Positions 3,877 through 26,013 of a stretch of 26,013 nucleotides of DNA are shown piece after piece. The position numbers and the translations under genes were made by a program. The notes under the pieces are model-generated. The model was not told the DNA's origin. It searched no databases and worked only from the letters and a program-made list of their open reading frames with translations. Within the stretch, counting starts at the first letter, position 1. Each line of letters starts with the position of its first letter. Source of the DNA: a virus (lineage: Duplodnaviria > Heunggongvirae > Uroviricota > Caudoviricetes); the IMG/VR virus record IMGVR_UViG_2671180460_000013. One strand, 5' to 3'.

Positions 3877-4570
3877 GTAGTGCTTCCCTTAGTGATGAGA
3901 GATTATCGCCGACGAACAGCATCACAGCTGTAAAAACCCACTCGGGGTGTGGGATGTTTTTTTGTATCAGCACTGCGGCCTGGCTAAGGGCTCCCTTGTA
4001 GCAAAAGCGCCACACCGGGCAAAATTTTTGCCGGAGTGCTGCCTGCTGATCAGCGATTTCCTGTAGTGCTTTATCTCTCGCATTCATGAACTGACGCAAC
4101 GATGATGACAATGTTTCCGGTGATGTGACGGCAGGAGTGGCTGCCTGTGCAATGGTTGCTGCCAGTGACATGCTGCGAGTGGTCTGTGTCGATAGCATTA
4201 TCGGTTCCGGAAGTGATGTTAGCGGTCTGGCGGGGATTTGCATTCTGCTGATGGCCAGTGAAAGCTGGCTGGAGATCATGCGGGACATTCGTCCCACCTC
4301 TGGCAACGGAAATGCGCCTGAAAATTGCCTGGCGAGTGATAGAAACTCGTCGGCAGACGGGGCGCAAAATAACAGCGCCACAACGTCTTTTTCTGTGTTT
4401 TCTGTCAGATAAGGTAAAAGCGCGGATACAGCATTATCCGGGCTGAGGTAACGCCCTGATGGTGTAATGTTTCCCGTATTTTCTGACCATGGGTGGAGGC
4501 AAACCATTGAACAGGTAATAGCTATGGGGGCTGGTCGCAAAACAGAGCGTATCCATGTTGAATTGTTCAT
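3848..4570 (-). CDS. hypothetical protein (240 aa), Ser/Thr/Ala-rich with a Cys-containing C-terminus; possible accessory or chaperone of tail fiber 2
   Basis: ATG at 4568-4570 with AGGAAG RBS, 24 nt after the fiber-2 stop. Lacks the conserved C-terminal motif of classical tail fiber assembly proteins. Confidence 0.4.
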   Translation of the reverse strand: MNNSTWIRSVLRPAPIAITCSMVCLHPWSENTGNITPSGRYLSPDNAVSALLPYLTENTEKDVVALLFCAPSADEFLSLARQFSGAFPLPEVGRMSRMISSQLSLAISRMQIPARPLTSLPEPIMLSTQTTRSMSLAATIAQAATPAVTSPETLSSSLRQFMNARDKALQEIADQQAALRQKFCPVWRFCYKGALSQAAVLIQKNIPHPEWVFTAVMLFVGDNLSSLREALHDPDDCPCA

Positions 4571-4594: not shown

Positions 4595-6151
4595 TTACCC
4601 CATTCCGTTCTGGCGTAATGTTGTTCCCGCAAATATTTTTGCCACCACAACACAGGGAAGGGGGCCATTTTCTGCGCTGGCTGTCTCCTCCAGTGTCGAT
4701 GTATCCAGTGCATAGTAAGGTGTGTCTGGCATCACCACCCGTATTCTTACTGTTATTGTGCTCGCGGTAGCCGAAACAGAACCGACAAAATACTGAGCAG
4801 GAATGTATTTCCGGTTCTGATTCATGTAGAGATAACGTGGTTCGAGCAGAGCAGAAACAACGATACCCACTCCCCCAACAGAGGATTTCCTGACAGGATT
4901 AGATACATCCAGTTCCATAGCATAAATACGTGAACCATCCGGTAGGCTTTTAAATGAATCCAGGTTGCTGTTCAGGGTACTTGCAGCCACCTTTGGAATG
5001 ACCGGATGAGTGCCATCAACAAATAAGTCTCCGGATTGTTGTCTGGACAGTAAATTGGTCGGCGCAGAAGAAATTGCGGGGTCCTCTGATGAATGGATGT
5101 CAAGAGATTCTATCTGTTTGCGAACAAAGGCCACACTGGCAATTTCATTATCTGCTGCATCATCCGGCGGTGTTGGTATAGTCGGCTTTCCTGTGAATTC
5201 CGGGCTTTCCAGAGGAGCCCTTGTTTCAATAAGTTCCCTGAGTGCAACCTCGTTTACTTTCAGGTTTTCCCAGCCAGTCAGCCAGCCATTACCAGTGGAC
5301 CAGTAACGGTTGTAATAAATATTGCCATTAATGCCGTAGAAAATAATGGCCTTTGCTGTATGTGACGGAAGTGGTGGGTTCTGGTTCGCCTCCAGCCAGC
5401 GGATACTTATCACCCCCCGAAAAACAATGCCGGGAAGTACACCGTTTGCCCCATCCACATAATATTCTCCTGGTTCCACATATCTTATCCATGCCAGAAA
5501 ATCAGCATCAGAGTTAAACCTGACGGCCTCTCCCGGAATAAAAATATGCCCAAAACCAAATGCGCCTGGTGTCGCCAGACGACCTTCAGAACGGTCACGG
5601 ATACCATTCTGAGGTTCCATTGTGGCCGCTTTTTTTAGCCCGAGATTATCGCGTGATTCCTGTTGTGCCTCTTCGCCCTCATCAGCAATTTCTGACAGGC
5701 GATTAGGTGCTTTCAGTGCTGTTTTCAGTTCCGGAGTGATATCCACCTGCCAGCTCTGCGGAGGGGCTGTGACTTGTGCAGACTGAGCAATGCCGCTGTA
5801 TATAATCGTGAAATTACGAATAAGTGATTCGCCTGTTACTTTTTGTCGAACAGGCGTTTTTATTACGCCGCACAATGTTCTGCTGGCCTGATGGATGAGG
5901 CAAATCCAGTCATAACTGAATGCGGAGTCATCGGGAACAACGGCACTACACACAATATTGTTCTGACTTAACTGCCCATAGGTCAGTTCATTAACAATAT
6001 ATGTGATTTTTTCTTCCGGGATGGCATCATCTTCGCGCGTCGGCTCCCGCTCCATCAGGGCAAAAATAATGGCATCAGGGCGTGCAGGTAAATTACTGGC
6101 TGTGCATTCAGCAACCCACTTTTCAAATGCTTTCGTTAACAGTGCGCTCAT
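4595..6151 (-). CDS. tail fiber protein 2 (518 aa)
   Basis: N-terminal ~150 aa alignable by eye to the N-terminus of fiber 1 (PARPD, YxW motifs). Contains the fiber motif SPEFTGKPTIPTPP...EIASVAFV. C-terminal half is unrelated to fiber 1. AT-richer than neighbours. Confidence 0.7.
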   Translation of the reverse strand: MSALLTKAFEKWVAECTASNLPARPDAIIFALMEREPTREDDAIPEEKITYIVNELTYGQLSQNNIVCSAVVPDDSAFSYDWICLIHQASRTLCGVIKTPVRQKVTGESLIRNFTIIYSGIAQSAQVTAPPQSWQVDITPELKTALKAPNRLSEIADEGEEAQQESRDNLGLKKAATMEPQNGIRDRSEGRLATPGAFGFGHIFIPGEAVRFNSDADFLAWIRYVEPGEYYVDGANGVLPGIVFRGVISIRWLEANQNPPLPSHTAKAIIFYGINGNIYYNRYWSTGNGWLTGWENLKVNEVALRELIETRAPLESPEFTGKPTIPTPPDDAADNEIASVAFVRKQIESLDIHSSEDPAISSAPTNLLSRQQSGDLFVDGTHPVIPKVAASTLNSNLDSFKSLPDGSRIYAMELDVSNPVRKSSVGGVGIVVSALLEPRYLYMNQNRKYIPAQYFVGSVSATASTITVRIRVVMPDTPYYALDTSTLEETASAENGPLPCVVVAKIFAGTTLRQNGMG

Positions 6152-6157
6152 TACTTC

Positions 6158-6694
6158 TTAATTCTCGCTAATATTCTGCGGTAATTCTGGCCATACAATT
6201 GCGGCATACGATGATTTATCTGTAACCTGACTGAATGTCATCTCTCGTAACGTTTTTGTATAAATACGCCAGACTTTCAGCTTTTCCTTGTCTTCATCGC
6301 TGATTAACCCCAGCAGCAAGTCTGTCTTTTTATCGGATATTTCCCGTTCAGCAATCTCTATAAAACGCGCACGCTCCGACTCCGCCCGCTGTCTGTAGTC
6401 AACAGGAACAGGAAGAACTGCGCCATCTTTATAATACCAACGTGCTTCAATACAAAAACCTTCGGGTAATTCATCCGCTTCCACAATGGTAAAACCTGCC
6501 GGATAAAGCCGGGATACGTCTTCCGCCATTGAATAAATAACGCCGGTTTCAGGATGCGTGCACAGCTTGTACTTCTTCGTGAATTTATCCAGTGATTCAT
6601 AAAAATCCTGCCCGTCTTCACTACGGAAATACTGAATGCCTTCACCATAAGGCATATCTTCAGGGTAGTAACGCGTAACATTTCTGAGCTCCAT
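6158..6694 (-). CDS. tail fiber assembly protein (P2 gpG / Tfa-like)
   Basis: Start moved to the internal ATG at 6692-6694, preceded by AAGGAG. KDGAV motif and C-terminal WPELPQ resemble P2 gpG as recalled. Immediately downstream of fiber 1. Confidence 0.8.
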   Translation of the reverse strand: MELRNVTRYYPEDMPYGEGIQYFRSEDGQDFYESLDKFTKKYKLCTHPETGVIYSMAEDVSRLYPAGFTIVEADELPEGFCIEARWYYKDGAVLPVPVDYRQRAESERARFIEIAEREISDKKTDLLLGLISDEDKEKLKVWRIYTKTLREMTFSQVTDKSSYAAIVWPELPQNISEN

Positions 6695-6708
6695 TGTTTT
6701 CTCCTTAA

Positions 6709-8406
6709 TTAACCTGACACAGAACGCCATGCGCCATTTATATAAATCTGAGCCTGTTTGTAATACACGCCACCGATATTATCCGCAGAGTTGCTCCCGG
6801 TATCCTGAACCAGAATACCGGACAGGGTGCAGCCAGACGGTGCGCGGAACGTCCAGCTGTGTTCGTTCCCTCCCGGGTTGTAAAACACCTCACTGGTGTA
6901 CTGAAAATTCTGCACGCCTCCTGTTCTGGTCTGGTAGCGTTCATCGAAATTGCCATAATCAGTTGGTGTTACCCGCCCTGAAACATTCACTTCCCGGTTA
7001 CTTTGTAACGCGCCATTCTGAAAACGGAATATGTGCTGACCATTGGCATAAACATCCAGCAGGCCGTCACCATTCTGTTTCAGGCCGGTATCGTTATCCC
7101 CGAAAGCAATTGAGTTACCGCCCAGCGCGTTCTGAACGCCGATACCAAGTGCACCATTGACCTGCGAACCACCGCCAACAGACACTTTATGCGACATGGA
7201 TATTTCACCCGTCCGCAGATTAATAGTGAACGGTCGAAGTGGACCAATATCGCCATTCTCGCCCTGACCTTCACTGGTAGGGATAAGGTGCAGGCACTCT
7301 TCCGAACGACGAAAAATCAGACCAAAGGCTTCGTCGAAAATTCGCAGCGCATTAATACCACGGATTTTCAGCTCCCCGGTCATGGTATCGCCGTCGCGCT
7401 CAACAGCGCCTTTTGCCTTATCCATTACGATTTTTACTGCCTTTGATGTGGCGGCACGGTCTTCTGCGTCACTGTCGGTGTCATTACTGTACTGCGCAAA
7501 ACCCTTTTCGTTCAGTGTGGCATCCGGATGTCTGCGGGATTTTTCGTGTTCTGCCAGCGCATTGCTTTGTTCCTCGTCGGGTGTTTCCGGGCGCAGATCC
7601 TGTGGGCCGTCTCCTGTCATTTTTGCAAGTGGCGCGACAAAGTGTCGGAAGCCGTTATCGTCTGTATAGGACGCATGTTCCTGGCGGGCGCAGAACGTAA
7701 AAACGGTATTCCATTCGCCGGTAACAAATCCCTGCCAGCTTGCATCAATCCAGAGGGTATCCCCGACCGCAGCCGGCAGGCTGTAAGGTTCGCGCAGACT
7801 GACGCGCAGACCTCCCACATAACCCACGCCGGCGGCAACAGTAGCGGTACCGTCCTGATAGCTGACCTGAAAACCATCCCCCAGAAAAGCGGCTTCACCG
7901 TAGTGATCAAACGCCAGCAGCCGGCGGGCCTCATCCATTCCTGCAAGGCGTGCAGTGAAATCAATCTGCCAGACATCAGCGCTGACATCGATATGCATTG
8001 CTGCGGCTGCGCCGTCAAACTCCATGGAAAATGTGCGGATCAGGTTGTTTCCCTGCACGCCGTTCGCTGTTTTAATTTTTTGCTGACGAGGTGTGTGTGC
8101 AATCATGCAGAGCACGCCGCTTTCTTCGTTCAGCAGACCGATCCAGTTGTATTCGAAGTCGCCGACTGTCGTGTCCAGAATGATGGAAAACGCGGTCGCG
8201 TTCGGCGACAGGAGGCCGTACTGGGTGACCGGCGCACGATACTGAATCATGGATTCATCAGGGAGTATCTCATCGCGGGGGATCTCTGCGGATTCATCCT
8301 GTCCCGGAATATATGCAAAAACAAATGTATCCGGTCGCGCAGGTTTTCCACTGATGATCTGATTTGCGCACCAGTGTTCGTATTGTTCAGTAATAATCGT
8401 GCTCAT
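6709..8406 (-). CDS. tail fiber protein 1 (P2 gpH-like)
   Basis: 565 aa. AEHEKSRRHPDATLNEKGF, GDNDTGLKQNGDGLLDVYANGQHIFRFQNG and C-terminal YINGAWRSV match recalled P2 gpH blocks. ATGA overlap with the upstream gpI-like gene. Confidence 0.85.
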   Translation of the reverse strand: MSTIITEQYEHWCANQIISGKPARPDTFVFAYIPGQDESAEIPRDEILPDESMIQYRAPVTQYGLLSPNATAFSIILDTTVGDFEYNWIGLLNEESGVLCMIAHTPRQQKIKTANGVQGNNLIRTFSMEFDGAAAAMHIDVSADVWQIDFTARLAGMDEARRLLAFDHYGEAAFLGDGFQVSYQDGTATVAAGVGYVGGLRVSLREPYSLPAAVGDTLWIDASWQGFVTGEWNTVFTFCARQEHASYTDDNGFRHFVAPLAKMTGDGPQDLRPETPDEEQSNALAEHEKSRRHPDATLNEKGFAQYSNDTDSDAEDRAATSKAVKIVMDKAKGAVERDGDTMTGELKIRGINALRIFDEAFGLIFRRSEECLHLIPTSEGQGENGDIGPLRPFTINLRTGEISMSHKVSVGGGSQVNGALGIGVQNALGGNSIAFGDNDTGLKQNGDGLLDVYANGQHIFRFQNGALQSNREVNVSGRVTPTDYGNFDERYQTRTGGVQNFQYTSEVFYNPGGNEHSWTFRAPSGCTLSGILVQDTGSNSADNIGGVYYKQAQIYINGAWRSVSG

Positions 8407-10562: not shown

Positions 10563-12648
10563 GTAGCTCCATCCACTCGTTGAGACGGGCAGGAGATGGA
10601 TCCTGCACGTTGACGTTGACCACACGACGGGAGTTATCGATTGTGGTCTGGTTTTCGTTGTTGTTCTGCATCTCTGCCGCAATGCCACCCGGCCCCGCGC
10701 TGATGGCTTTACCACCGGTTAATACGGAGCCTTCGCCACTTCCTGTGCTTTCTGATGTGCCGATGTTAACGCCGGGGATCATGTTGAGTTTGTCCACAAT
10801 CCAGCCCCATGAATCACTGAAGGACTGTTTCACCAGTTCCCAGAGGTTACTGAAAATGTTCAGGATGCCGCCGGCGATATCCTTCAGGGCGTCCAGAGGT
10901 GAATGCGTGGAAAAATAGTTAACCAGTGCATTCCAGCCGTCCTGGATTGTGTTCCATGCATTGCCGAACCATGCCCCCATACTGCCGACCATTTCAGCCA
11001 CCCACTGAAAGGCGGCGGTGTCCATCAGTGCGGCTTTGATTTCATCCCAACGGGTGATCAGGAAATAAATGCCCACACCCAGCGCAGCCAGTGCCAGGAT
11101 GATTAATGTGATGGGGCTGAAAAGTAACTGTGTTGCAATTGCAGCTCCGCTGGTGACTGCGGTGTAGATTTTCATTGCTATGCCGGCGGCACCCAGCGCA
11201 ACAGAATAAAGCCAGAGTCCGGCGCGCTGTAATTTCAGCAGCGCCAGCTGAATTTTTGCTTTGACGTTGTATGTTCCCATAGCAATGGACATGGCCAGAT
11301 ACAGCGCCCTGACCGTTCGGGCAACTACAGTGAATGCCCACATGGTAGCCGTCAGTGTGCGTTTCAGCAGAATGAGAATCTTCAGAGGTGTAACTGCTGC
11401 CAGCCAGACCAGCCGCAGTCCTGTCCAGACAAACTTCGCCACACCCACCATAATGTTGACAACGGCACCCACTGCGGCAATGCCCAGCAGGGCGGCAGAC
11501 AGTAAACCAATAGCCCGTGTGATATTGGGATACAGACGTAACCAGGCAACAAAGGATTTACCGCCTTCGTTGCTTTTCTGGATAAACGGGTACAGAACAG
11601 GCAGCAACTGCGTGCCGATTTCGATGCGAATGCCGTTAATAATTGCGGCGGCCTGTTCCCATGGATCAGCCATGGCCTGCGCCATTTCGACAGCCTTATC
11701 CATCCCTTTGATATTGCCCAGCGTGGCGATATTCTTTTCAAGTCCGCCAATGTCCGCATTGAGTAATTTAATCATGGCCACAGCTTCATCGGAGCCAAAG
11801 GCGCTTTTCAGCAAATCGGAATCAGCCACTTTTGACAGATCACCAAATTTGCCCCTGATAAGTTTCATGATCTCGACAACACTTTTCATCGTGCCGTTTT
11901 TATTCACGAAATTAAGCCCCAGCTTTTTCTGGGCGCTGCCTACTGCGGCAAGAAATGCCTTGTACTTTGTCCCGGCCTCGCTGCCACTCATGGTGGCCTG
12001 CAGTTGTCCCAGCACGGCGAACTGTTCAGCCGCATCAATACCGGCCGCTTTTGCACTGGCACCCAGCGTGGTGAACGCCGCTGACATGTTATCGCCGGTT
12101 GTTTTAAACATTTGCACGGCGGTGGCGGTTTGCCCGGCGACCTGCTCCACCCATTTGCTTTTTCCCATGGCATCAGCCTGGTCTTTAAAGATGCCGTACA
12201 TGGTGCCCATGTAGGCGGTAATGGTCTGGCTGCTGGATTTGGTTGCTGCTGCCACCGTTGCTGATGCGGTGGTGAAGCGGGACAGCTCATCGTCAGTTAA
12301 CCCGGCAATGGCTGACTGGATGTCGTAAGAAGCACGCACAAAATCCTGCGCAGCCCCGCCGTATTCCATAGTGAAATCAACGGCGGCGCGGCTGAGTTTA
12401 CGCAATCCGGACTCTGCGACGCCCAGTGATTTCACCTCACCGAGCGCCCTGTCCATTTCAATGGCTGGCATCAGTGCCCCCTGAATGGCTGCACCCACTC
12501 CCCAGAGCGCAGCGCCTCCGGTAGCAATGTCCCGAAAGGCTCCCCGACTTGTTGCAGCAAATCCCTGAACCTGTCGCCCGGCTGCACGCAACGGCCTTGT
12601 CAGGCGGTCTGTCAGTTCAAGAAGTAATTCAAGGCGCTGTTGTGACAT
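10552..12648 (-). CDS. tail tape measure protein
   Basis: 698 aa, Ala/Gly-rich with a long hydrophobic central segment. Directly follows the frameshifted tail chaperone pair; its ATG overlaps the stop of the frameshift product. Confidence 0.8.
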   Translation of the reverse strand: MSQQRLELLLELTDRLTRPLRAAGRQVQGFAATSRGAFRDIATGGAALWGVGAAIQGALMPAIEMDRALGEVKSLGVAESGLRKLSRAAVDFTMEYGGAAQDFVRASYDIQSAIAGLTDDELSRFTTASATVAAATKSSSQTITAYMGTMYGIFKDQADAMGKSKWVEQVAGQTATAVQMFKTTGDNMSAAFTTLGASAKAAGIDAAEQFAVLGQLQATMSGSEAGTKYKAFLAAVGSAQKKLGLNFVNKNGTMKSVVEIMKLIRGKFGDLSKVADSDLLKSAFGSDEAVAMIKLLNADIGGLEKNIATLGNIKGMDKAVEMAQAMADPWEQAAAIINGIRIEIGTQLLPVLYPFIQKSNEGGKSFVAWLRLYPNITRAIGLLSAALLGIAAVGAVVNIMVGVAKFVWTGLRLVWLAAVTPLKILILLKRTLTATMWAFTVVARTVRALYLAMSIAMGTYNVKAKIQLALLKLQRAGLWLYSVALGAAGIAMKIYTAVTSGAAIATQLLFSPITLIILALAALGVGIYFLITRWDEIKAALMDTAAFQWVAEMVGSMGAWFGNAWNTIQDGWNALVNYFSTHSPLDALKDIAGGILNIFSNLWELVKQSFSDSWGWIVDKLNMIPGVNIGTSESTGSGEGSVLTGGKAISAGPGGIAAEMQNNNENQTTIDNSRRVVNVNVQDPSPARLNEWMELHAY

Positions 12649-13129
12649 TACGATCCCTTAAAAGCACGGATAATGCCGTTATTGACGGCGATGCTCATAT
12701 TTTCCCAGTAGTGGTTATCCAGCCAGACGGCGGCAGCCAGTGACTGCGGCGAGTCATCCTCGCCGGGCAGCCAGTGGCGGCGCAGAATCAGCATCCGGGT
12801 AAGGTCATTGCGATCAATGGCCCCCAGATGGCTTTTTATTTTTTTACGGTGATTTCCACTTCCGGCACAAACTCGTTATTCACGGCTGTTGCCAGGCTGG
12901 CCGGCATTCCTGGTTTTTCCAGCAACTGGTTCAGCAGATCGCGGTGCTCTTTAATCACGATACGGCGCAGGTAGTTTTTCAGCGGCGCGATTTTGTTATC
13001 CGGCATGAAGTCGTTCTGCAGGTCGTTGTAGGCTTTTACGGTCGGGATAAACGTCAGTTCATGCTCGCCGACCTGTAAAGTGATGGTGTTCTCTGCGGTA
13101 GTCTGGGTGTTTTTATCGTTCATCATCAT
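12648..13129 (-). CDS. tail assembly chaperone frameshift fusion product (E+E' / G-T analogue) made by a programmed -1 frameshift
   Basis: The -1 frame entered at the slippery site stays open for 63 codons (hand-translated, no stops) and ends at a TAA overlapping the tape-measure ATG (TAATG at 12646-12650). Confidence 0.6.
12836..13129 (-). CDS. tail assembly chaperone (P2 gpE / lambda gpG analogue)
   Basis: 97-aa ORF directly upstream of the tape measure gene, ending ...VKK-TAA on an A-rich slippery run. Three consecutive ATGs at 13121-13129; the third has the best RBS spacing. Confidence 0.7.
   Translation of the reverse strand: MMMNDKNTQTTAENTITLQVGEHELTFIPTVKAYNDLQNDFMPDNKIAPLKNYLRRIVIKEHRDLLNQLLEKPGMPASLATAVNNEFVPEVEITVKK
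12839..12845 (-). other. slippery heptamer A AAA AAA for the -1 ribosomal frameshift
   Basis: Transcript reads ACC GTA AAA AAA TAA; the X XXY YYZ heptamer sits at the last sense codons of the chaperone gene. Confidence 0.6.
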
Positions 13130-13155
13130 TTCCTTTTAAAGTCAAGAATAAGAGG

Positions 13156-13187
13156 GCTTAATAAGCCTGCAGGAAGGCTTATTAAGC
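13156..13187 (-). terminator. stem-loop (12-bp perfect inverted repeat) between the endolysin and the tail chaperone; candidate attenuator or partial terminator
   Basis: GCTTAATAAGCC, 8-nt loop, GGCTTATTAAGC, 7 nt after the endolysin stop. Followed on the transcript by a moderately U-rich tract (CCUCUUAUUCUU). Confidence 0.4.
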
Positions 13188-13193
13188 GTAAAA

Positions 13194-13535
13194 TCAGCGC
13201 ACGCCGTCGTGCTCAAGGCTGAAATGATTGCCATCCGGGCGGTTTTTAAAACGACCGCCCCATGCGCCACCAAGGGATTCCCAGTACTCGCCCAGCTCGC
13301 GGTAGGCCTCTGTGCGGGTCTGATATTCACCGTTAATAAACAGATTAAAATCCACGGCCAGCCGCTGGCAGTGCAGGCTGTTGGCAATGCCGGATCCCTT
13401 TTGTGCGTTGAGTTTTGCCTGTTCTGGCGTGCGGTACGCCTCACCGAACGTCAGGCCATAACCGCGCTGATGGGCAAACTGGATGAGTTTTCCGATCATG
13501 ACGGTAAATTGTTGTTGCTTATCGGAGAGTTTCAT
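13194..13535 (-). CDS. endolysin, M15-family zinc peptidase (L-alanyl-D-glutamate peptidase type)
   Basis: 113 aa. HCQRLAVD (H-x6-D) and C-terminal GNHFSLEH fit the M15 zinc-binding arrangement. AAGGAG RBS. Adjacent to the holin. Confidence 0.75.
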   Translation of the reverse strand: MKLSDKQQQFTVMIGKLIQFAHQRGYGLTFGEAYRTPEQAKLNAQKGSGIANSLHCQRLAVDFNLFINGEYQTRTEAYRELGEYWESLGGAWGGRFKNRPDGNHFSLEHDGVR

Positions 13536-13639
13536 TTTTGCTCCTTATGAGGTTGCTGAGGTTTGCGCAGCCAGTACCACAGTGCCCGGATAATTTTCCA
13601 GGCAATGGCGGCAGCTTTTTGTTCCCTGCGGGACAGCAT
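13532..13639 (-). CDS. small cationic amphipathic ORF (35 aa, MLSRREQKAAAIAWKIIRALWYWLRKPQQPHKEQK) between holin and endolysin
   Basis: Hand-translated; below the ORF-track size cutoff. ATG at 13637-13639 with GAGGAG RBS inside the holin 3' end. Its TGA overlaps the endolysin ATG (ATGA). Confidence 0.4.
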   Translation of the reverse strand: MLSRREQKAAAIAWKIIRALWYWLRKPQQPHKEQK

Positions 13640-13644
13640 TGCTG

Positions 13645-13941
13645 TTACTCCTCTTTGTTCTCTTTCTCGCCCAGCTTCCGGCGCATATGACGCAGGAAGA
13701 TTTCAACAATCTGGTAACCGGCAACGCCCATTGCGGTGCCTGCGCCGGCAATGGCCAGTGGGTCAAGGTTCGGGTAGCGAACCAGCAGGGCAGCGGCAGA
13801 AACACCCAGCGCGCTCCCCAGCAGGGTTCGGCCCACAAACAACCGCAACGTAATCGGCTCTGCGCCAGCCAGCACCCGACTTGCGGCAGCGATTCCGCCC
13901 AGAATGCCCAGAGTGATAATGGTGCGCTCATGCTCCTGCAT
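13645..13941 (-). CDS. holin (three predicted transmembrane segments, charged C-terminal tail)
   Basis: 98 aa with three hydrophobic stretches and a C-terminal RHMRRKLGEKENKEE. Directly upstream of the endolysin. GGGGTG RBS. Confidence 0.65.
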   Translation of the reverse strand: MQEHERTIITLGILGGIAAASRVLAGAEPITLRLFVGRTLLGSALGVSAAALLVRYPNLDPLAIAGAGTAMGVAGYQIVEIFLRHMRRKLGEKENKEE

Positions 13942-13944
13942 GGT

Positions 13945-14400
13945 TCACCCCATCAGTCCGCGCACGTCGTTCTCTGAGAGAACGGGCACGCCGTTGATAC
14001 GCACAAAGTCAGGGCTTGCCACCACGTACTTGATTTTGTGCGTGGTCAGATCTGCGCTCTCGGTGTCAATGCTTAACAGGCCGGAAAGCATCAGCTCACA
14101 ACCGAAGGCTTCAACGCGGATTTCTTCGGTTCCCGTATTGGCGTAAAACACAAAATCCATTGGCGGCAGGTCACGCCACGATCCCGCCTGAGCAGCCACT
14201 TCCCCGAGCTGGTTAAAGCTGCGGGTACTCATTTCGATTTCACCTTCGGCACTGACAGGGCCGCGCAGTTTGCCGTCAGGGATGCCACGGGTTTTGGCAA
14301 CGGCGCTTTCATCGCTGATGTCCAGTGAGATGCTTTTCACATGGATATCCGTTCCACCGATAAAAGTGTCAAACGCCATGCCGTTAATGCGGGTCGTCAT
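13945..14400 (-). CDS. tail tube protein (putative)
   Basis: 151 aa, immediately downstream of the sheath gene with an ATGA overlap. Assignment is by position and size, not motif. Confidence 0.6.
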   Translation of the reverse strand: MTTRINGMAFDTFIGGTDIHVKSISLDISDESAVAKTRGIPDGKLRGPVSAEGEIEMSTRSFNQLGEVAAQAGSWRDLPPMDFVFYANTGTEEIRVEAFGCELMLSGLLSIDTESADLTTHKIKYVVASPDFVRINGVPVLSENDVRGLMG

Positions 14401-21985: not shown

Positions 21986-23012
21986 AAAGAAAAAATCCCC
22001 CGTGTTACACGATGGCGTGGCAAAAAAAACAGCCAGCAAAATGACTTTTATTGAATTTGGTGACCCGGAACCGGTCGCTGCATGGGGCTGTTATTACGGC
22101 TCGCTCTGGGATGGCTATAACGGCTGGTACACGCCGCCCATTGAGCGCATGGATCTCGCCATGTTGTCCAATATCGCACCGTATCACGGCGCGGTATTGC
22201 GTGCGCGCGTCAATATGATCATGCAGGGTTTTCGGGGTGGCGGTGGTATGACACACGCCGCCATGGCGGCAGCAGTAACCAATCTGCTGATATTCGGGGA
22301 TATGGGGTTGCTTAAAGTGCGCAATGGCTTCGGTCGAGTGGTGCGCCTGCATACGTTACCTTCTCTGTACCTGCGGCGTAACAACGAGGGTGGCACGGTG
22401 ATTGTGCAGGCGGCACTGGAAGATCTCGTTTACCCGCCAGGCGAAGTGGTGTTCGTGGCCGTTTATGACCCGCAACAGCAGGTTTACGGTGTCCCGGATT
22501 ATATTCACGGGATGGAATCCGCCATGCTGAATGTGGATGCCACCCGCTTTCGCCGCAAGTATTACAAGAACGGCGCACATCTTGGTTATATCCTGTATTC
22601 CAGTGACCCGGACATGGATCCCGAGCTCGAGGCGGAATTCCGTAAAAAGATAGAGGCGTCAAAAGGGGCGGGCAATTTTAAATCCATGTTTATCAATATA
22701 CCGGGCGGAGACAAAGAAGGCGTTAAGGTGATCCCTATCGGGGATTCAGGTACAAAAGATGAGTTCCTGAATATAAAAACCATCAGTGCCCAGGATCAGC
22801 TTGTTGCGCACCGTTTCCCACCCGGACTTGCCGGCATCATTCCCGCAAATACGGCCGGGCTTGGTGACCCACTGAAATCCCGCGAGGCATATTACAGGGA
22901 TGAGGTTATCCCGATGCGCCGCCTGATTATGGAGGGGATCAACAGCGACCCGGATATCAGACGACTGGGGGAGGTGAAATTTATTCTTGATTTTGATGAA
23001 CCCATGGAGTGA
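21978..23012 (+). CDS. Q: portal protein, P2 gpQ-like
   Basis: 344 aa, the same length as P2 gpQ as recalled. Its ATG overlaps the last codons of P (GATGAGTAA). Confidence 0.85.
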   Translation: MSKKKKSPVLHDGVAKKTASKMTFIEFGDPEPVAAWGCYYGSLWDGYNGWYTPPIERMDLAMLSNIAPYHGAVLRARVNMIMQGFRGGGGMTHAAMAAAVTNLLIFGDMGLLKVRNGFGRVVRLHTLPSLYLRRNNEGGTVIVQAALEDLVYPPGEVVFVAVYDPQQQVYGVPDYIHGMESAMLNVDATRFRRKYYKNGAHLGYILYSSDPDMDPELEAEFRKKIEASKGAGNFKSMFINIPGGDKEGVKVIPIGDSGTKDEFLNIKTISAQDQLVAHRFPPGLAGIIPANTAGLGDPLKSREAYYRDEVIPMRRLIMEGINSDPDIRRLGEVKFILDFDEPME

Positions 23013-23077
23013 TGTGCGGTATGGGGAAAGAGCGGGTAAAATCGGTGGCAGTAAAACGCTGTTCCGGGAGGTGGAAA

Positions 23078-23335
23078 ATGCGCAGACAGAAAGCGCGATG
23101 TCATTGCTGCGGTGCACATGCAGTGATTGAGAAAACAGCCTGGAAAACCGATCAGTTTGCTGATGTGTATTACCGTTGCACCCGTCTCGAGTGCGGACAT
23201 ACCTGGGTGATGAATCTGACCTACTCGCACACACTGGTGCCCAGCGGGCTGGAGAATGGTGTGTTAAAGCTGTTGATTGAGCGGATGCGTCCGGAAGAAA
23301 AACAAATGGCTCTGGAGTTGTTGCAGGCCGGATAG
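23078..23335 (+). CDS. ogr: Ogr/Delta-family zinc-finger late transcription activator (putative)
   Basis: Internal ATG at 23078 with GGGAGG RBS gives 85 aa. CHCC ... CTRLEC gives the CxxC ... Cx4C spacing of P2 Ogr. Followed by a strong terminator. Confidence 0.7.
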   Translation: MRRQKARCHCCGAHAVIEKTAWKTDQFADVYYRCTRLECGHTWVMNLTYSHTLVPSGLENGVLKLLIERMRPEEKQMALELLQAG

Positions 23336-23355
23336 CTGACGCGCTTCGCTTGTCC

Positions 23356-23406
23356 AACCCGGAACGGGCGCACAAAGAATTTGCGCACCCGTTCCGGGTT
23401 TTCTTA
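23356..23406 (+). terminator. intrinsic terminator between convergent ogr and the Rrf2/par operon (possibly bidirectional)
   Basis: 13-bp perfect stem AACCCGGAACGGG / CCCGTTCCGGGTT around a 19-nt partly self-complementary loop, followed by TTTTCTTATTC on the plus strand. Confidence 0.6.
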
Positions 23407-23763
23407 TTCAATGGCAGACAACTGATAATTTGTGTCTTCCTGCAGGCTGGTTAAAGAAATATTATCCAGTGCAGCCAGAATAACGTGCTGTGTATATAAT
23501 CCGGAACATTTCATTGCCCGGACAATATCACCAACACTGTAATTTTCTTTTGTCGGGATATATCCACCACCCGGGCCGCGTGTGGCTTTTACCAGGCTAC
23601 TTTCCCGTAAATATCTGAATATTTGCTCCAGATATGACAGTGAAACGGTTTCTTTGCTTAATTGCCGGAGCGAGATTGGCTTTCCGGTGTACTGTTTCAC
23701 AAATTTAATCATTACCATAACTGCAACTGATGCACGCTGGCTTCCGGAATTATCTTTCATCAT
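23404..23763 (-). CDS. Rrf2-family transcriptional regulator (short; lacks the three-Cys cluster ligand set)
   Basis: Start at the ATG doublet 23758-23763 with GGAAG RBS. ISLRQLSKETVSLSYLEQIFRYLRESSLVKATRGPGGGY matches the Rrf2 HTH / GGGY signature. Only one Cys in the C-terminal half. Confidence 0.7.
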   Translation of the reverse strand: MMKDNSGSQRASVAVMVMIKFVKQYTGKPISLRQLSKETVSLSYLEQIFRYLRESSLVKATRGPGGGYIPTKENYSVGDIVRAMKCSGLYTQHVILAALDNISLTSLQEDTNYQLSAIE

Positions 23764-23774
23764 GATTACTTCCA

Positions 23775-24062
23775 TTAATGGCATAAATTGATGGAGCGGG
23801 TCAGTGAATAAAGAGGCAATACATTCCATCCCTTAGAGCGCCAGCTGTCTGCAACATCTTTACTTCTTGTTATCGCCGGTATTCCAATAGGATTATTTGC
23901 GTGCATCCATGCCACTGGCTCTGCTTCCAGTGATGCAAGTGCGATTTCCAGTGCGATTAACATATTGTGATCGTCTTCATCAAGACCGAACGGGATGTCT
24001 TCGCGCCACGATTTAAACTCTGTGATTTTACGTTGTAACCATTCTTTGGTAATGGTGGACAT
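23775..24062 (-). CDS. hypothetical protein (95 aa) co-transcribed between parR and the Rrf2 gene
   Basis: ORF-track start at 24080 is GTG. The internal ATG at 24060-24062 has an AGGAG RBS 6 nt upstream. No recognisable motif. Confidence 0.5.
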   Translation of the reverse strand: MSTITKEWLQRKITEFKSWREDIPFGLDEDDHNMLIALEIALASLEAEPVAWMHANNPIGIPAITRSKDVADSWRSKGWNVLPLYSLTRSINLCH

Positions 24063-24076
24063 AGTTACTCCTGTTT

Positions 24077-24391
24077 TCACTTCGGGAAAAACGCCTGAAT
24101 ATTTTTTTTCACCTGCTGCATATGGGTGGCGCTGTCTGCTGCTGGTTGCGCCGGTTTTTCAGGCTGTACTGGTAGCGGTGGCATCCGTATTTCGTCTTCT
24201 GACCATTCTGCCAGCGAATACGCCAACGCGGGGTGGCGTTTTATAAGAGCCAGTCCGGCCAGAAAAGCCGCGCGTTGTGCGCGGCTGCGTTCGGAGGCTG
24301 GCAGGCTGTCGAGGTAACTGCACGCCTCCCGTTCGCTCTTGACGACGGCGGGCTTCAGATAGAAACTTATCCGTCTGGTTGGTGTCGTCAT
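24077..24391 (-). CDS. parR: ParR-like centromere-binding protein (ribbon-helix-helix type, type II partition)
   Basis: Internal ATG at 24389-24391 with an AAGGAG RBS inside the parM 3' end. RISFYLKP...LDSLPASERSRAQRAAFLAGLAL parallels recalled R1 ParR (IAFKLNPD...LDSIPQGERSRLNRAALTAGLAL). Confidence 0.75.
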   Translation of the reverse strand: MTTPTRRISFYLKPAVVKSEREACSYLDSLPASERSRAQRAAFLAGLALIKRHPALAYSLAEWSEDEIRMPPLPVQPEKPAQPAADSATHMQQVKKNIQAFFPK

Positions 24392-24395
24392 TGAT

Positions 24396-25355
24396 TTACT
24401 CCTTGTCCATTGCGTACAGCCCATTAACCAGAGCAAACTGTGGCACCCCGTCCGCGATGAAAGTCGCATTAACTCCGCAGGCTTCGCGGATAGCGGGTGC
24501 CACAATCTCCGCTCCTCCACCTACAACCATCACCCGCCCGTAACCCGAAAAACCCGCCAGCGCGCGGATCACGCGTTGTTTCAGTGTTTCTTCCTTTTCA
24601 CGAATAACAGCCATCAGGCTGGCGTAATGTGCGTTATTGTGGATGTGCTGGCGCAGCCAGGCTTCATCGTGGCGATGTTCGATAATGGTATTAGCGATGT
24701 GGTGACTGGTACGCATACCGTTGGTGGCCATCACCGACAGCACGGCATCGGCCATCAGGGAAACGCCTACGTGTGGATCGCAAAACACCTGGCTGATACC
24801 TGCCAGTTGCCCCTGAACCTTTGCCACATCCAGCGTGGTTCCGCCCAAATCCACAATCAGCAGGGATTCAAACGGACTCATGTCAGCCAGTGCTTTAAAG
24901 CCTGCCGGAATGGATTCAGGCATAACCCGCACGTTACGGATAGTGAATGCCTCACCGTTCTGGTACTCCACCGGGCGCATGACGTTCGCTTTTTTGCGGT
25001 TGATGTTGGCCATGTCCGGCTGTGCGTTTGTGTCGAAATACTCGCTCAGTGGCAGGGTGACAACCACATCCACCTCCTGTGGCGTGATGCCTGATTTGAC
25101 CAGCGCGTGATGAATGGCAATTACATTCACATCGCTGTACTGGTATTGCGTGTCGGTCGTCTGGACAAAGCGATCGCTGACCGGATCAAAACCATAGCGC
25201 ACGCCATCAAGCATGTAGTTCGCGGGCTGCGTGCCACCGAACGGCGCAGACCATTCCGACTTGAAGCTGTTCGGGCTGATGGCGTTGCGGCGTTCGCCGT
25301 TCTCAGTCCATGCCAGCTTGATGTTGGTGGAGCCGTCATCGATACAAATTTTCAT
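24396..25355 (-). CDS. parM: ParM / StbA-family actin-like segregation ATPase
   Basis: 319 aa. MKICIDDGSTNIKLAW, ISPNSFK, YSDVNV..HHAL, VMPESIPAG, DLGGTTLD and VVGGGAE blocks align by eye with recalled R1 ParM along most of the protein. Confidence 0.9.
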   Translation of the reverse strand: MKICIDDGSTNIKLAWTENGERRNAISPNSFKSEWSAPFGGTQPANYMLDGVRYGFDPVSDRFVQTTDTQYQYSDVNVIAIHHALVKSGITPQEVDVVVTLPLSEYFDTNAQPDMANINRKKANVMRPVEYQNGEAFTIRNVRVMPESIPAGFKALADMSPFESLLIVDLGGTTLDVAKVQGQLAGISQVFCDPHVGVSLMADAVLSVMATNGMRTSHHIANTIIEHRHDEAWLRQHIHNNAHYASLMAVIREKEETLKQRVIRALAGFSGYGRVMVVGGGAEIVAPAIREACGVNATFIADGVPQFALVNGLYAMDKE

Positions 25356-25386
25356 GTCGCTTTTCCTTATGTTGATTAATTAATCG

Positions 25387-25484
25387 TTTACGGGATTCTG
25401 AAATCCCGTTTTTGCCTGTTTTATGCGCGCTTCATATATCGCGGCGCGTTTTTTGCTCATTTACGGGATTCGTGAGTCCCGTTT
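25387..25484. repeat. two copies of a ~20-bp palindromic motif (TTTACGGGATTC...TCCCGTTT) 73 bp apart upstream of parM; candidate parC centromere / operator flanking the par promoter
   Basis: ACGGGATT-ctga-AATCCCGT at 25390-25409 and ACGGGA-ttcgtgag-TCCCGT at 25463-25482. The proximal copy sits 30-55 nt upstream of the parM ATG; the distal copy overlaps the 3' end of the upstream ORF. Confidence 0.45.
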
Positions 25485-26013
25485 CTGTCAGTTTTTTGTT
25501 TCCACTGGTCAGGCCACCCCGCAGCAGGTCTGCTTTGCGGCTGGCGCGTTCAGTGGTTTCACTGATTCTCTGTGCGTGCTCTGCGTCGCGGATGGTGCGC
25601 AGCATGTCAGAAAGCACGGTAACGGGTGTTTTCATGGTGTTCTGGTCCTGCTGAAGTGTGGATGCCAGGCGTGCGGCGGCTTCAGGGTCTGATGCTCCCA
25701 GCTGTGCCAGATAGCTGGCGACCGGGTTATGGCGGATCTCTGTGCTGCTTACGCCATGATTATGGCTCAGGCGCTGCCAGAGCTGCGTGATTCGGCTGTC
25801 CGGGCGGGTATCCGGTTTGCGTACAATTTCAAATCCCTGCGGTGCAATGATGCTGCCGTCAACGTACAGACTGCCGCCCCGTAACAGGTGCTGCATCTGT
25901 TGTTCACCGATATGCAGGCCGAGAGATTCAGCAGACTCCCGCCATTCTTTAGCGAGTAATTCGTGGTTATCAGGCAAAGGCCGCTGCTGTTTGCGGCTCT
26001 GTGTCCAGCTCTG
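25432..26013 (-). CDS. hypothetical protein, 5'-partial (reading frame open to the window edge)
   Basis: ORF-track start at 25977 is TTG. Hand translation of 25978-26013 in frame shows no stop, so the gene probably starts beyond the window. Stop at 25432-25434. Confidence 0.5.
   Translation of the reverse strand, partial: QSWTQSRKQQRPLPDNHELLAKEWRESAESLGLHIGEQQMQHLLRGGSLYVDGSIIAPQGFEIVRKPDTRPDSRITQLWQRLSHNHGVSSTEIRHNPVASYLAQLGASDPEAAARLASTLQQDQNTMKTPVTVLSDMLRTIRDAEHAQRISETTERASRKADLLRGGLTSGNKKLTETGLTNPVNEQKTRRDI

Follow-up and report, generated by a model that had tools for sequence, protein, structure and literature searches.

A conserved palindrome pair upstream of parMR in P88-like prophages: a candidate parC centromere

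The window analysed here, a stretch of 26,013 nucleotides (IMG/VR record IMGVR_UViG_2671180460_000013), is a prophage of the P88 / Xuanwuvirus type, in the P2 family (Peduoviridae). Its minus strand encodes an actin-like segregation ATPase, ParM, and a small adaptor protein, ParR, and two near-identical palindromes with A-rich flanks lie directly 5' to the parM-parR pair. Our analysis inclines us to the view that these palindromes and their flanks are the cis-acting centromere, parC, of a ParMRC partition cassette, and that they are bound by ParR. By the same leaning, this parC would be a minimal and split site composed of inverted rather than direct repeats. We favor this assignment because the site occupies the canonical place of a parC (PMC5016525, PMC2241845), because it is linked to parM, conserved in its arms and spacing and unique in the phage genome, and because its A-tracts are phased as they are in R1-type and other plasmid parC regions. 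The binding of ParR, its stoichiometry, the shape of the segrosome and the biological role of the site are what we infer from these features. Coordinates of the features discussed are collected in Table 1.

The palindromes and the par cassette

The pattern TTTACGGGATTC-N5-TCCCGTTT has exactly two matches on the plus strand of the window, at 25387-25411 and 25460-25484, with a start-to-start distance of 73 bp. When the same double match was written as the search pattern TTTACGGGATTCNNNNNTCCCGTTT, none of 100 dinucleotide-preserving shuffles gave any match. The proximal palindrome has perfect arms of 8+8 bp (ACGGGATT and AATCCCGT) around a 4-nt center, and its core, GGGATT-N4-AATCCC (25392-25407), starts 52 nt 5' of the parM ATG. 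The distal palindrome has arms of 9+9 bp (ACGGGATTC and GAGTCCCGT; 89%, one mismatch), and the corresponding repeat unit is 125 nt upstream of the same ATG. The likeness of the two copies reaches beyond the palindromes and defines a direct repeat of 42 nt. The core, allowing at most one mismatch, is found only at these two sites in the window, and only twice, at the homologous places, in the complete 35.8-kb genome of P88. A tandem direct-repeat array was searched for in the repeat analysis and none was found; the strong repeats are the inverted half-sites GGGATT and AATCCC.

An initial, sequence-only reading of this DNA had described two near-identical copies 73 bp apart, immediately upstream of parM, and had suggested a search of the rest of the replicon for further copies. 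The exact matches, the absence of other cores and the protein searches described below bear this out, except that just one copy, the proximal, is intergenic; the distal one falls within the 3' end of the upstream gene, which encodes a gpA-type replication endonuclease. Neither this overlap nor the integrated, P2-like nature of the element had been noticed.

The identification of the two downstream genes is firm. Pfam matches of ParM to StbA_N (1.8e-82) and to the ParM C-terminal domain (1.6e-68) cover residues 1-316, and the protein aligns end to end with the structures of R1 ParM (E = 1.9e-92). The E. coli and Hafnia copies of this ParM are 94% identical, and the nearest plasmid ParMs, of the IncL/M type, are 52% identical. 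The parR start codon is 4 nt past the parM stop. ParR matches PF10784 (Plasmid_stab_B, 1.3e-24) and the PHROG family annotated as 'partition protein' (7.9e-45), and has a weak match to the pB171 ParR structure 2JD3 (E = 0.011). Thus parMR is a genuine pair of type II partition genes, located distally in the early operon of the phage. In 19 aligned ParR homologs, which are 47-91% identical overall, residues T5 through P14 of the N-terminal strand MTTPTRRISFYLKP are invariant and the C-terminal motif NIxxxFP is conserved, with divergence concentrated in the linker. In ribbon-helix-helix proteins, the N-terminal strand is the part that reads the DNA, and the invariance of this strand would fit the invariance of the palindrome arms. 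An AlphaFold2 model of the ParR monomer had a mean pLDDT of 61 and left the N-terminal strand unformed, as expected for an obligate dimer, and the fold is unconfirmed by the model.

Viral contigs were scanned for the exact motif, which gave 107 loci. Of these, 105 have parM within 200 nt. The remaining two (L070, about 4090-4300; L079, about 6335-6500) have arisen by deletion: both palindromes and the end of gpA are still present, but only the first ~50 nt of parM survive, the likeness to the window stopping ~50-60 nt into the gene and other DNA standing in the place of parMR. Separation of gpA from the palindromes was seen in only three loci. The Rep protein of L031 shares only 31% identity with P88 gpA, and in L045 the upstream open reading frame (ORF) is 40% identical to the gpA C-terminal region, yet in both the palindromes and parMR are close to the window type. 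Similarity to the window in these two loci begins roughly 5-18 nt upstream of the distal palindrome, coinciding with the outer end of the 42-nt repeat unit, and runs into parM. In the third, L016 (IMGVR_UViG_2874920711_000009, about 11486-14165 in parM sense), the spacer is interrupted by an IS66-family element, which has taken the place of everything upstream of the proximal palindrome; gpA is cut short at residue 762 and the distal palindrome is lost, and the proximal palindrome and parM remain. The position of the gpA stop codon is itself variable, being in the spacer in the E. coli types and in the center of the distal palindrome in the Hafnia lineage. Because the border of the cassette in L031 and L045 is just upstream of the distal palindrome, both palindromes are, as judged from sequence comparison, part of the par cassette, and the overlap with gpA is an effect of the junction between modules. 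A tblastn search with the C-terminal 193 amino acids of gpA returned the same 14 phage records that are described below, all with palindromes and parMR, and no such gpA without parMR.

Conservation within the site was examined in 70 unique haplotypes. The GGGATT and AATCCC arms are almost invariant, and the 4-nt centers, the outer flanks and the spacer vary. For the proximal palindrome, a single change in a single haplotype, at arm pair 3, was the only arm variation, the rest falling in the 4-nt center and the outer flank. There is one common arm polymorphism, T or C at the fifth position of the distal left arm; the window and others, together 29 of the 70 haplotypes, carry GGGACT there (parM-sense), and the commonest form is the perfect GGGATTCACAAATCCC. 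Loci from Hafnia were retrieved through a ParR homolog, independently of the motif, and these keep the perfect cores GGGATTCATGAATCCC and GGGATTTGAAAATCCC. In the ungapped comparison with Hafnia, none of 24 arm positions differs, against 24 of the 65 other positions in the block (Fisher p = 0.0002). The spacing is similarly constrained. Of 58 unique upstream haplotypes, 54 have a spacing of 73 bp and three one of 72 or 74 bp; a count on the Hafnia sequences, with an equal-length alignment, likewise gives 73 bp, although the spacer there has diverged. The spacer is the most variable part of the block, both among haplotypes and against Hafnia, with its length kept. The proximal core is at -52 from the parM ATG in 57 of the 58 haplotypes.

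The site also has the predicted shape of a curved DNA. A periodogram of the A-tracts peaks at 10.5 bp with a power of 1.38, a value reached by none of 2000 shuffles and by none of 2590 equal-length windows of the 26-kb sequence. The same calculation gave 1.29 at 10.5 bp for an R1-type parC and 1.11 at 10.7 bp for the Hafnia phage-type region; for plasmid parC regions, in which the signal is carried by T-tracts, it gave 1.61 (IncL/M) and 1.20 (IncF), and the phasing signature is present in IncI/K as well. The spacing of 73 bp corresponds to 7.0 helical turns, which places both palindromes on the same face of the helix. The A-tract units that recur at 10.5 bp are only loosely alike. A degenerate direct iteron, AAAC-N-G-N-C, fitted only two of the units picked by eye and was dropped, and phasing of the A-tracts alone is claimed.

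No promoter was found within the site. A sigma-70 promoter scan at the thresholds of the tool gave none on the parM-sense strand between the copies, and a weight-matrix scan of both strands, in E. coli and Hafnia types, gave none above the shuffled level on the parM-sense strand, where the best score was 5.8 and the shuffled median 6.3. A weak pair, ATGAGC (25460-25455) and TATATG (25438-25433) separated by 16 nt, is not above chance; its position is shared with Hafnia. It had been supposed that the palindromes flank the parM promoter and that AT-rich, -10-like hexamers lie between them, but the two scans do not sustain the promoter, and the hexamers come down to a GATATAT run that overlaps the gpA stop codon and varies among haplotypes. 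Since no promoter is detectable there, transcription of parMR probably reads through from gpA.

Comparison with characterized partition sites

One close comparison is with plasmid R1, whose parC consists of direct 11-bp iterons, is strongly curved and folds into a U-shaped complex with ParR (PMC2241845). In an R1-type locus (pHK01, L120) we found 2 x 5 direct 11-bp iterons resembling AAAACAACCC; the sequence-only reading had likewise described the R1 iterons as direct. The phage site resembles this parC in lying directly 5' to parM-parR, in the homology of ParM and of a PF10784 ParR, in being arranged as two blocks around a non-repeat core, and in the 10.5-bp phasing of its A-tracts, at comparable power. 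It differs in having two palindromes, with four clear and inverted half-sites, in place of ten direct iterons, in a core without a detectable promoter where that of R1 holds the par promoter, and in residing on an integrating P2-like phage rather than on a low-copy plasmid. The nearest plasmid relatives of this ParM belong to ParMRC loci of the IncL/M and IncF types (e.g., pEGKP4.3 and p19-7P3), which also have two repeat blocks 5' to parM. The IncL/M blocks are, as in the phage, 73 bp apart start to start (L121, 1060-1181; L128, 2876-2978). In both plasmid types T-tracts are phased at 10.3-10.4 bp and the ParR C-terminal motif is of an N(I/V)xxLFP type; however, their repeats are direct 10-bp units, TGTATTTTTC, and a good sigma-70-like promoter, TTTACA-17-TAATAA, can be read from the sequence between their blocks. 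The plasmid ParR N-terminal strand is NRKCSFYIYP, compared to TRRISFYLKP in the phage.

Other systems offer partial precedents. The ParRs of pB171 par1 and pSK41 are ribbon-helix-helix proteins whose dimers bind cooperatively, but to direct repeats, which in pSK41 form a continuous array of 20-bp units (PMC5016525). Two 10-bp repeats 5' to parM are enough for pB171 ParR, a precedent for a small site (PMC9426499). The type Ib ribbon-helix-helix proteins omega (pSM19035) and ParG (TP228) accept direct and inverted repeats equivalently (PMC5016525), so an inverted arrangement is mechanically compatible with an adaptor of this kind; these proteins work with ParA-type Walker ATPases rather than with ParM, and their repeat units are of 4-7 bp. 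The nearest functional precedent is the AlpA-AlpC-alpS system of the Corynebacterium glutamicum prophage CGP3, in which an integrated prophage encodes an actin-like filament protein and a DNA-binding adaptor whose target repeats lie 5' to the operon that encodes it. Expression of the alp genes is switched on early when the prophage excises, and efficient replication of the phage DNA depends on them (PMC4446434, PMC5539076); they provide a functional model for why an integrating phage would keep such a system. CGP3 differs in that its actin-like protein belongs to an unrelated family, the adaptor gene comes first, the host is Gram-positive, and alpS has 24 short TTAAnnG repeats rather than palindromes.

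From these comparisons, a mechanism can be proposed for the phage site. ParR dimers of the ribbon-helix-helix type would occupy the GGGATT and AATCCC half-sites, whose centers are ~11 bp apart, the period of the R1 iterons, so that each palindrome would carry a head-to-head pair of dimers. Two loaded palindromes, exactly seven helical turns apart on curved DNA, could then form a small U- or ring-shaped segrosome like that of R1 parC. From it, the conserved NIxxxFP tails at the ParR C terminus would catch the ends of ParM filaments, and circular phage genomes would be pushed apart. Any autoregulation by ParR might work as a roadblock, or through a weak, non-canonical promoter. Such a mechanism is mechanically reasonable because omega and ParG take both repeat orientations and because two 10-bp repeats suffice for pB171 ParR. 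The palindromic layout may also be less exotic than the literature suggests, since in our own scans the upstream regions of uncharacterized plasmid ParMRC loci show mixed direct and inverted repeats.

Measured against ParMRC loci in general, the phage cassette has an actin-like ParM, a small ParR encoded directly 3' to parM (its ribbon-helix-helix fold being itself predicted), a repeat-bearing cis site 5' to parM and helically phased A/T tracts. It does not have direct tandem iterons that would take one ParR dimer per 10-11 bp, and it does not reside on a low-copy autonomous replicon, nearly all copies being chromosomal. Several observations weigh against the assignment as parC. The strong repeats are inverted and provide only four clear half-sites, whereas all characterized ParRs bind direct repeats (PMC9426499); paired palindromes would thus be a different centromere architecture, as had been anticipated from the sequence. 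Unlike R1, there is no detectable promoter between the blocks, so that of the earlier proposal of a parC or operator, the parC part is borne out by position, linkage to parM and the conservation of arms and spacing, and the operator half of the role is left unsupported. The pattern of conserved arms and variable centers is equally expected of an RNA or DNA hairpin. Among complete E. coli genomes (n = 5426), the 161-bp candidate parC region is present at 1394 chromosomal places and 2 plasmid places, and in a chromosome a centromere has no obvious use. Finally, the sequences compared are close kin. All 87 ParR homologs are at least 46% identical, the 19 that were aligned share one N-terminal, DNA-reading strand, and there are no intermediates between 94% and ~52% ParM identity. 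A scan of genome contigs by ParM alignment found only copies that are 98-99% identical or plasmid types at ~50%, with no intermediates; a distant-homology search of the phage collection returned the same 14 records and no intermediate relatives; and a metagenome scan for the double palindrome added 47 P88-type loci and no new diverged lineage. The metagenome scan also drew an unrelated dispersed palindromic repeat, GGGATT(G/T)NNNAATCCC, typically GGGATTGGCAAATCCC, which is present in environmental contigs (Ga0190283, Ga0190284 and Ga0164315; L141-L236, e.g., L195 33-594 and L164 4575-4668), sometimes at several per kb.

Our literature searches on the motif, on phage P88 with ParM and on Xuanwuvirus found no description of the site or of a P88-like par system. 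A tentative extension of the parC assignment is that P88-like phages carry a working ParMRC with a minimal palindrome-pair centromere, and that theirs is the first ParR to read inverted repeats. It is likewise conjectural that the phage uses such a system to move or partition its circular genome, whether before integration, after excision, or in an unrecognized plasmid-like carrier state. The 161-bp region is found in 1271 of the 5426 genomes, roughly a quarter, with up to three copies per genome. Taken with the 94% identity of ParM between E. coli and Hafnia, and by analogy with AlpAC (PMC4446434), this conservation implies, as we interpret it, a function in the circular phase of the phage. 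If ParR does bind the palindromes, actin-type partition tolerates a wider range of centromere layouts than is known, and the site, at about 115 bp with four half-sites, would be very small and easy to dissect. A further prediction from the site is that P88-like phages sharing a host cell would show partition-type incompatibility. Of possibly greater interest than the site is the wider puzzle that a plasmid-partition machine is strongly conserved in an integrating phage so frequent in E. coli.

Alternative roles of the palindromes

The palindromes might instead act as RNA or single-strand DNA hairpins, which could stabilize, process or attenuate the gpA-parM transcript or, on the plus strand, serve as antisense terminators toward gpA. 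We consider such a role unlikely. On the plus strand the proximal palindrome does score as a canonical terminator, with an 8-bp stem, a 4-nt loop and the tail TTTTGCCTGT, and T-runs also follow the distal palindrome and the central G+C dyad and are kept in Hafnia. However, there is no plus-strand gene or promoter aimed at the site, the nearest plus-strand operon ending ~2 kb away, at 23335, and on the sense (minus) strand neither stem is followed by a U-tract; a Rho-independent terminator was therefore rejected. Both strands fold better than shuffled sequences (z = -3.2 and -3.5), and trivial pairing of one palindrome with the other, identical one dominates the folds of the whole region. The conservation of the stems and variability of the loops agree with a hairpin, but across the 70 haplotypes none of 18 pairs shows a compensatory double change and all changes are one-sided, in a comparison whose power is low among such close relatives. 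Moreover, in 29 of these haplotypes, including the window, the distal stem of the mRNA-sense strand is interrupted by a C-A mismatch, and the outer C-G pair is lost in Hafnia. There was no Rfam match in 25356-25500 (scan of 23000-26013, E <= 1); with neither covariation nor an Rfam hit, a structured cis-regulatory RNA was also set aside. A hairpin role would, in addition, leave unexplained the fixed 73-bp spacing and the block-wide phasing of A-tracts at 10.5 bp.

Two further explanations assign the palindromes to a different protein, and both are less probable still. A perfect palindrome of 16-20 bp is the classic shape of a site for a helix-turn-helix dimer such as Rrf2, and an Rrf2-family gene is present 1.5 kb away on the same strand; the co-encoded Rrf2 protein had accordingly been suggested as the binder. 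Among 50 loci that span parM to portal, all with a phage-type parM and parR, the site is conserved in every one but the Rrf2 gene is present in only one, which rules out Rrf2 as the cognate binder; in P88, vB_EcoM-569R5 and the lineages of L111 and L117, different cargo occupies that position. It is parMR, and not any cargo gene, that the palindromes accompany, and among the loci examined no further candidate regulator was seen to co-vary with the site. Binding by a host factor is possible. Operators for Rrf2 or for another dimeric regulator of phage or host are, on the whole, a very unlikely explanation. The lowest probability we give to a role in the replication module, as an origin, a nick site or the site of the gpA rolling-circle endonuclease. 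The origin of P2 and of 186 has been reported inside gene A, the distal copy is inside the 3' end of gpA, and the C-terminal 193 amino acids of this gpA type are found only in the 14 phage records that also have the palindromes and parMR. An origin should, however, co-vary with its initiator, and the palindromes are kept alongside the 31% identical Rep of L031 and the 40% identical ORF of L045, which speaks against a P2-type origin or gpA nick site. The border of similarity just upstream of the distal palindrome also argues against it, as does the wandering of the gpA stop relative to the palindromes between E. coli and Hafnia, which makes the coding overlap look like a by-product of the module junction.

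The host prophage and neighboring genes

The sequence-only reading had taken the element for a plasmid replicon, but a megablast search with 23000-26013 retrieved 14 phage records at 94-97% identity, annotated with a replication endonuclease, ParM and a partition protein, and the gene order of P88 is the same as that of the window. An integrase and structural genes of the P2 type are part of the element. The minus strand carries, in order, the 3' end of gpA, a gap of 76 bp, parM, parR, an ORF of 101 amino acids and the Rrf2-family gene; terminase, portal and an Ogr/Delta-like gene are on the plus strand.

Table 1. Positions in the window of the candidate site and of the genes around it
Feature	Position	Strand	Description
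Proximal palindrome	25390..25409		ACGGGATTCTGAAATCCCGT; in the gpA-parM intergenic gap
Distal palindrome	25463..25482 (core 25465-25480)		ACGGGATTCGTGAGTCCCGT; within the final ~17 codons of gpA
Proximal 42-nt unit	25384..25425		Direct-repeat family D1, reference copy; palindrome plus A-rich flank, CATAAAACAGGCAAAAA-CGGGATTTCAGAATCCCG-TAAACGA in parM sense
Distal 42-nt unit	25457..25498		Direct-repeat family D1, 79% identical to reference copy; outer end is the left border of the par cassette
Spacer between palindromes	25412..25462		G+C-rich dyad around an AT center, CGCGCCGCGATATATGAAGCGCGC on the parM-sense strand; gpA stop TGA at 25432-25434
Seven A-runs	25387..25497	- (parM-sense)	Phased at ~10.5 bp, predicted intrinsically curved; embed both palindromes
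gpA-type replication endonuclease, 3' end	25432..26013 (runs off window)	-	Last codons encoded by par-cassette DNA
parM	24396..25355	-	Actin-like segregation ATPase, 319 aa; Shine-Dalgarno AAGGA at 25368-25364
parR	24077..24391	-	Adaptor protein, 104 aa; R1/pB171 ParR family; proposed binder of the palindromes
101-aa ORF	23775-24080	-	Cargo slot
Rrf2-family gene	23404-23829	-	Cargo slot
Ogr/Delta-like zinc-finger gene	23009-23335	+	GTG start overlaps portal stop

The upstream gene is annotated as a replication endonuclease in P88; its full-length relatives match PF05840 (Phage_GPA), and it matches the PHROG family 'nicking at origin of replication' (5.8e-20). The P88-type gpA has 940 amino acids (in L001 its gene is at 5195-8017) and is about 180 residues longer than the 768-residue Rep of L031, with no Pfam domain in the extra C-terminal part. 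In L119 the gpA gene is split into ORFs of 609 and 296 amino acids.

The region between parR and portal, 23009-24080, is a variable cargo slot in which other phages hold unrelated genes. The three-gene cargo set of the window was found together in only 1 of 50 comparable loci (L123, from Escherichia albertii), which is 99% identical to the window. PADLOC defence models gave no match for ParM, ParR, Rrf2, the 101-residue ORF or the Ogr-like protein. In P88 (L137), an annotated host-killing gene of the hok/gef family at 34928-35068 is a second module of the plasmid-maintenance type besides parMR. One complete P88-like genome with integrase, C/Cox, gpA, parMR and structural genes (L138; NZ_CP148288.1, 1-34461) is on record as a circular, non-mobilizable 'plasmid' of 34.5 kb from an E. 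coli isolate, and could be an excised, replicating form or a plasmid-like state. A contig labelled as the Gram-positive Vagococcus sp. WN89Y (L124; NZ_JBQPOM010000071.1) encodes a ParM 98% identical to that of the window and is probably a contaminated or mislabelled enterobacterial contig.

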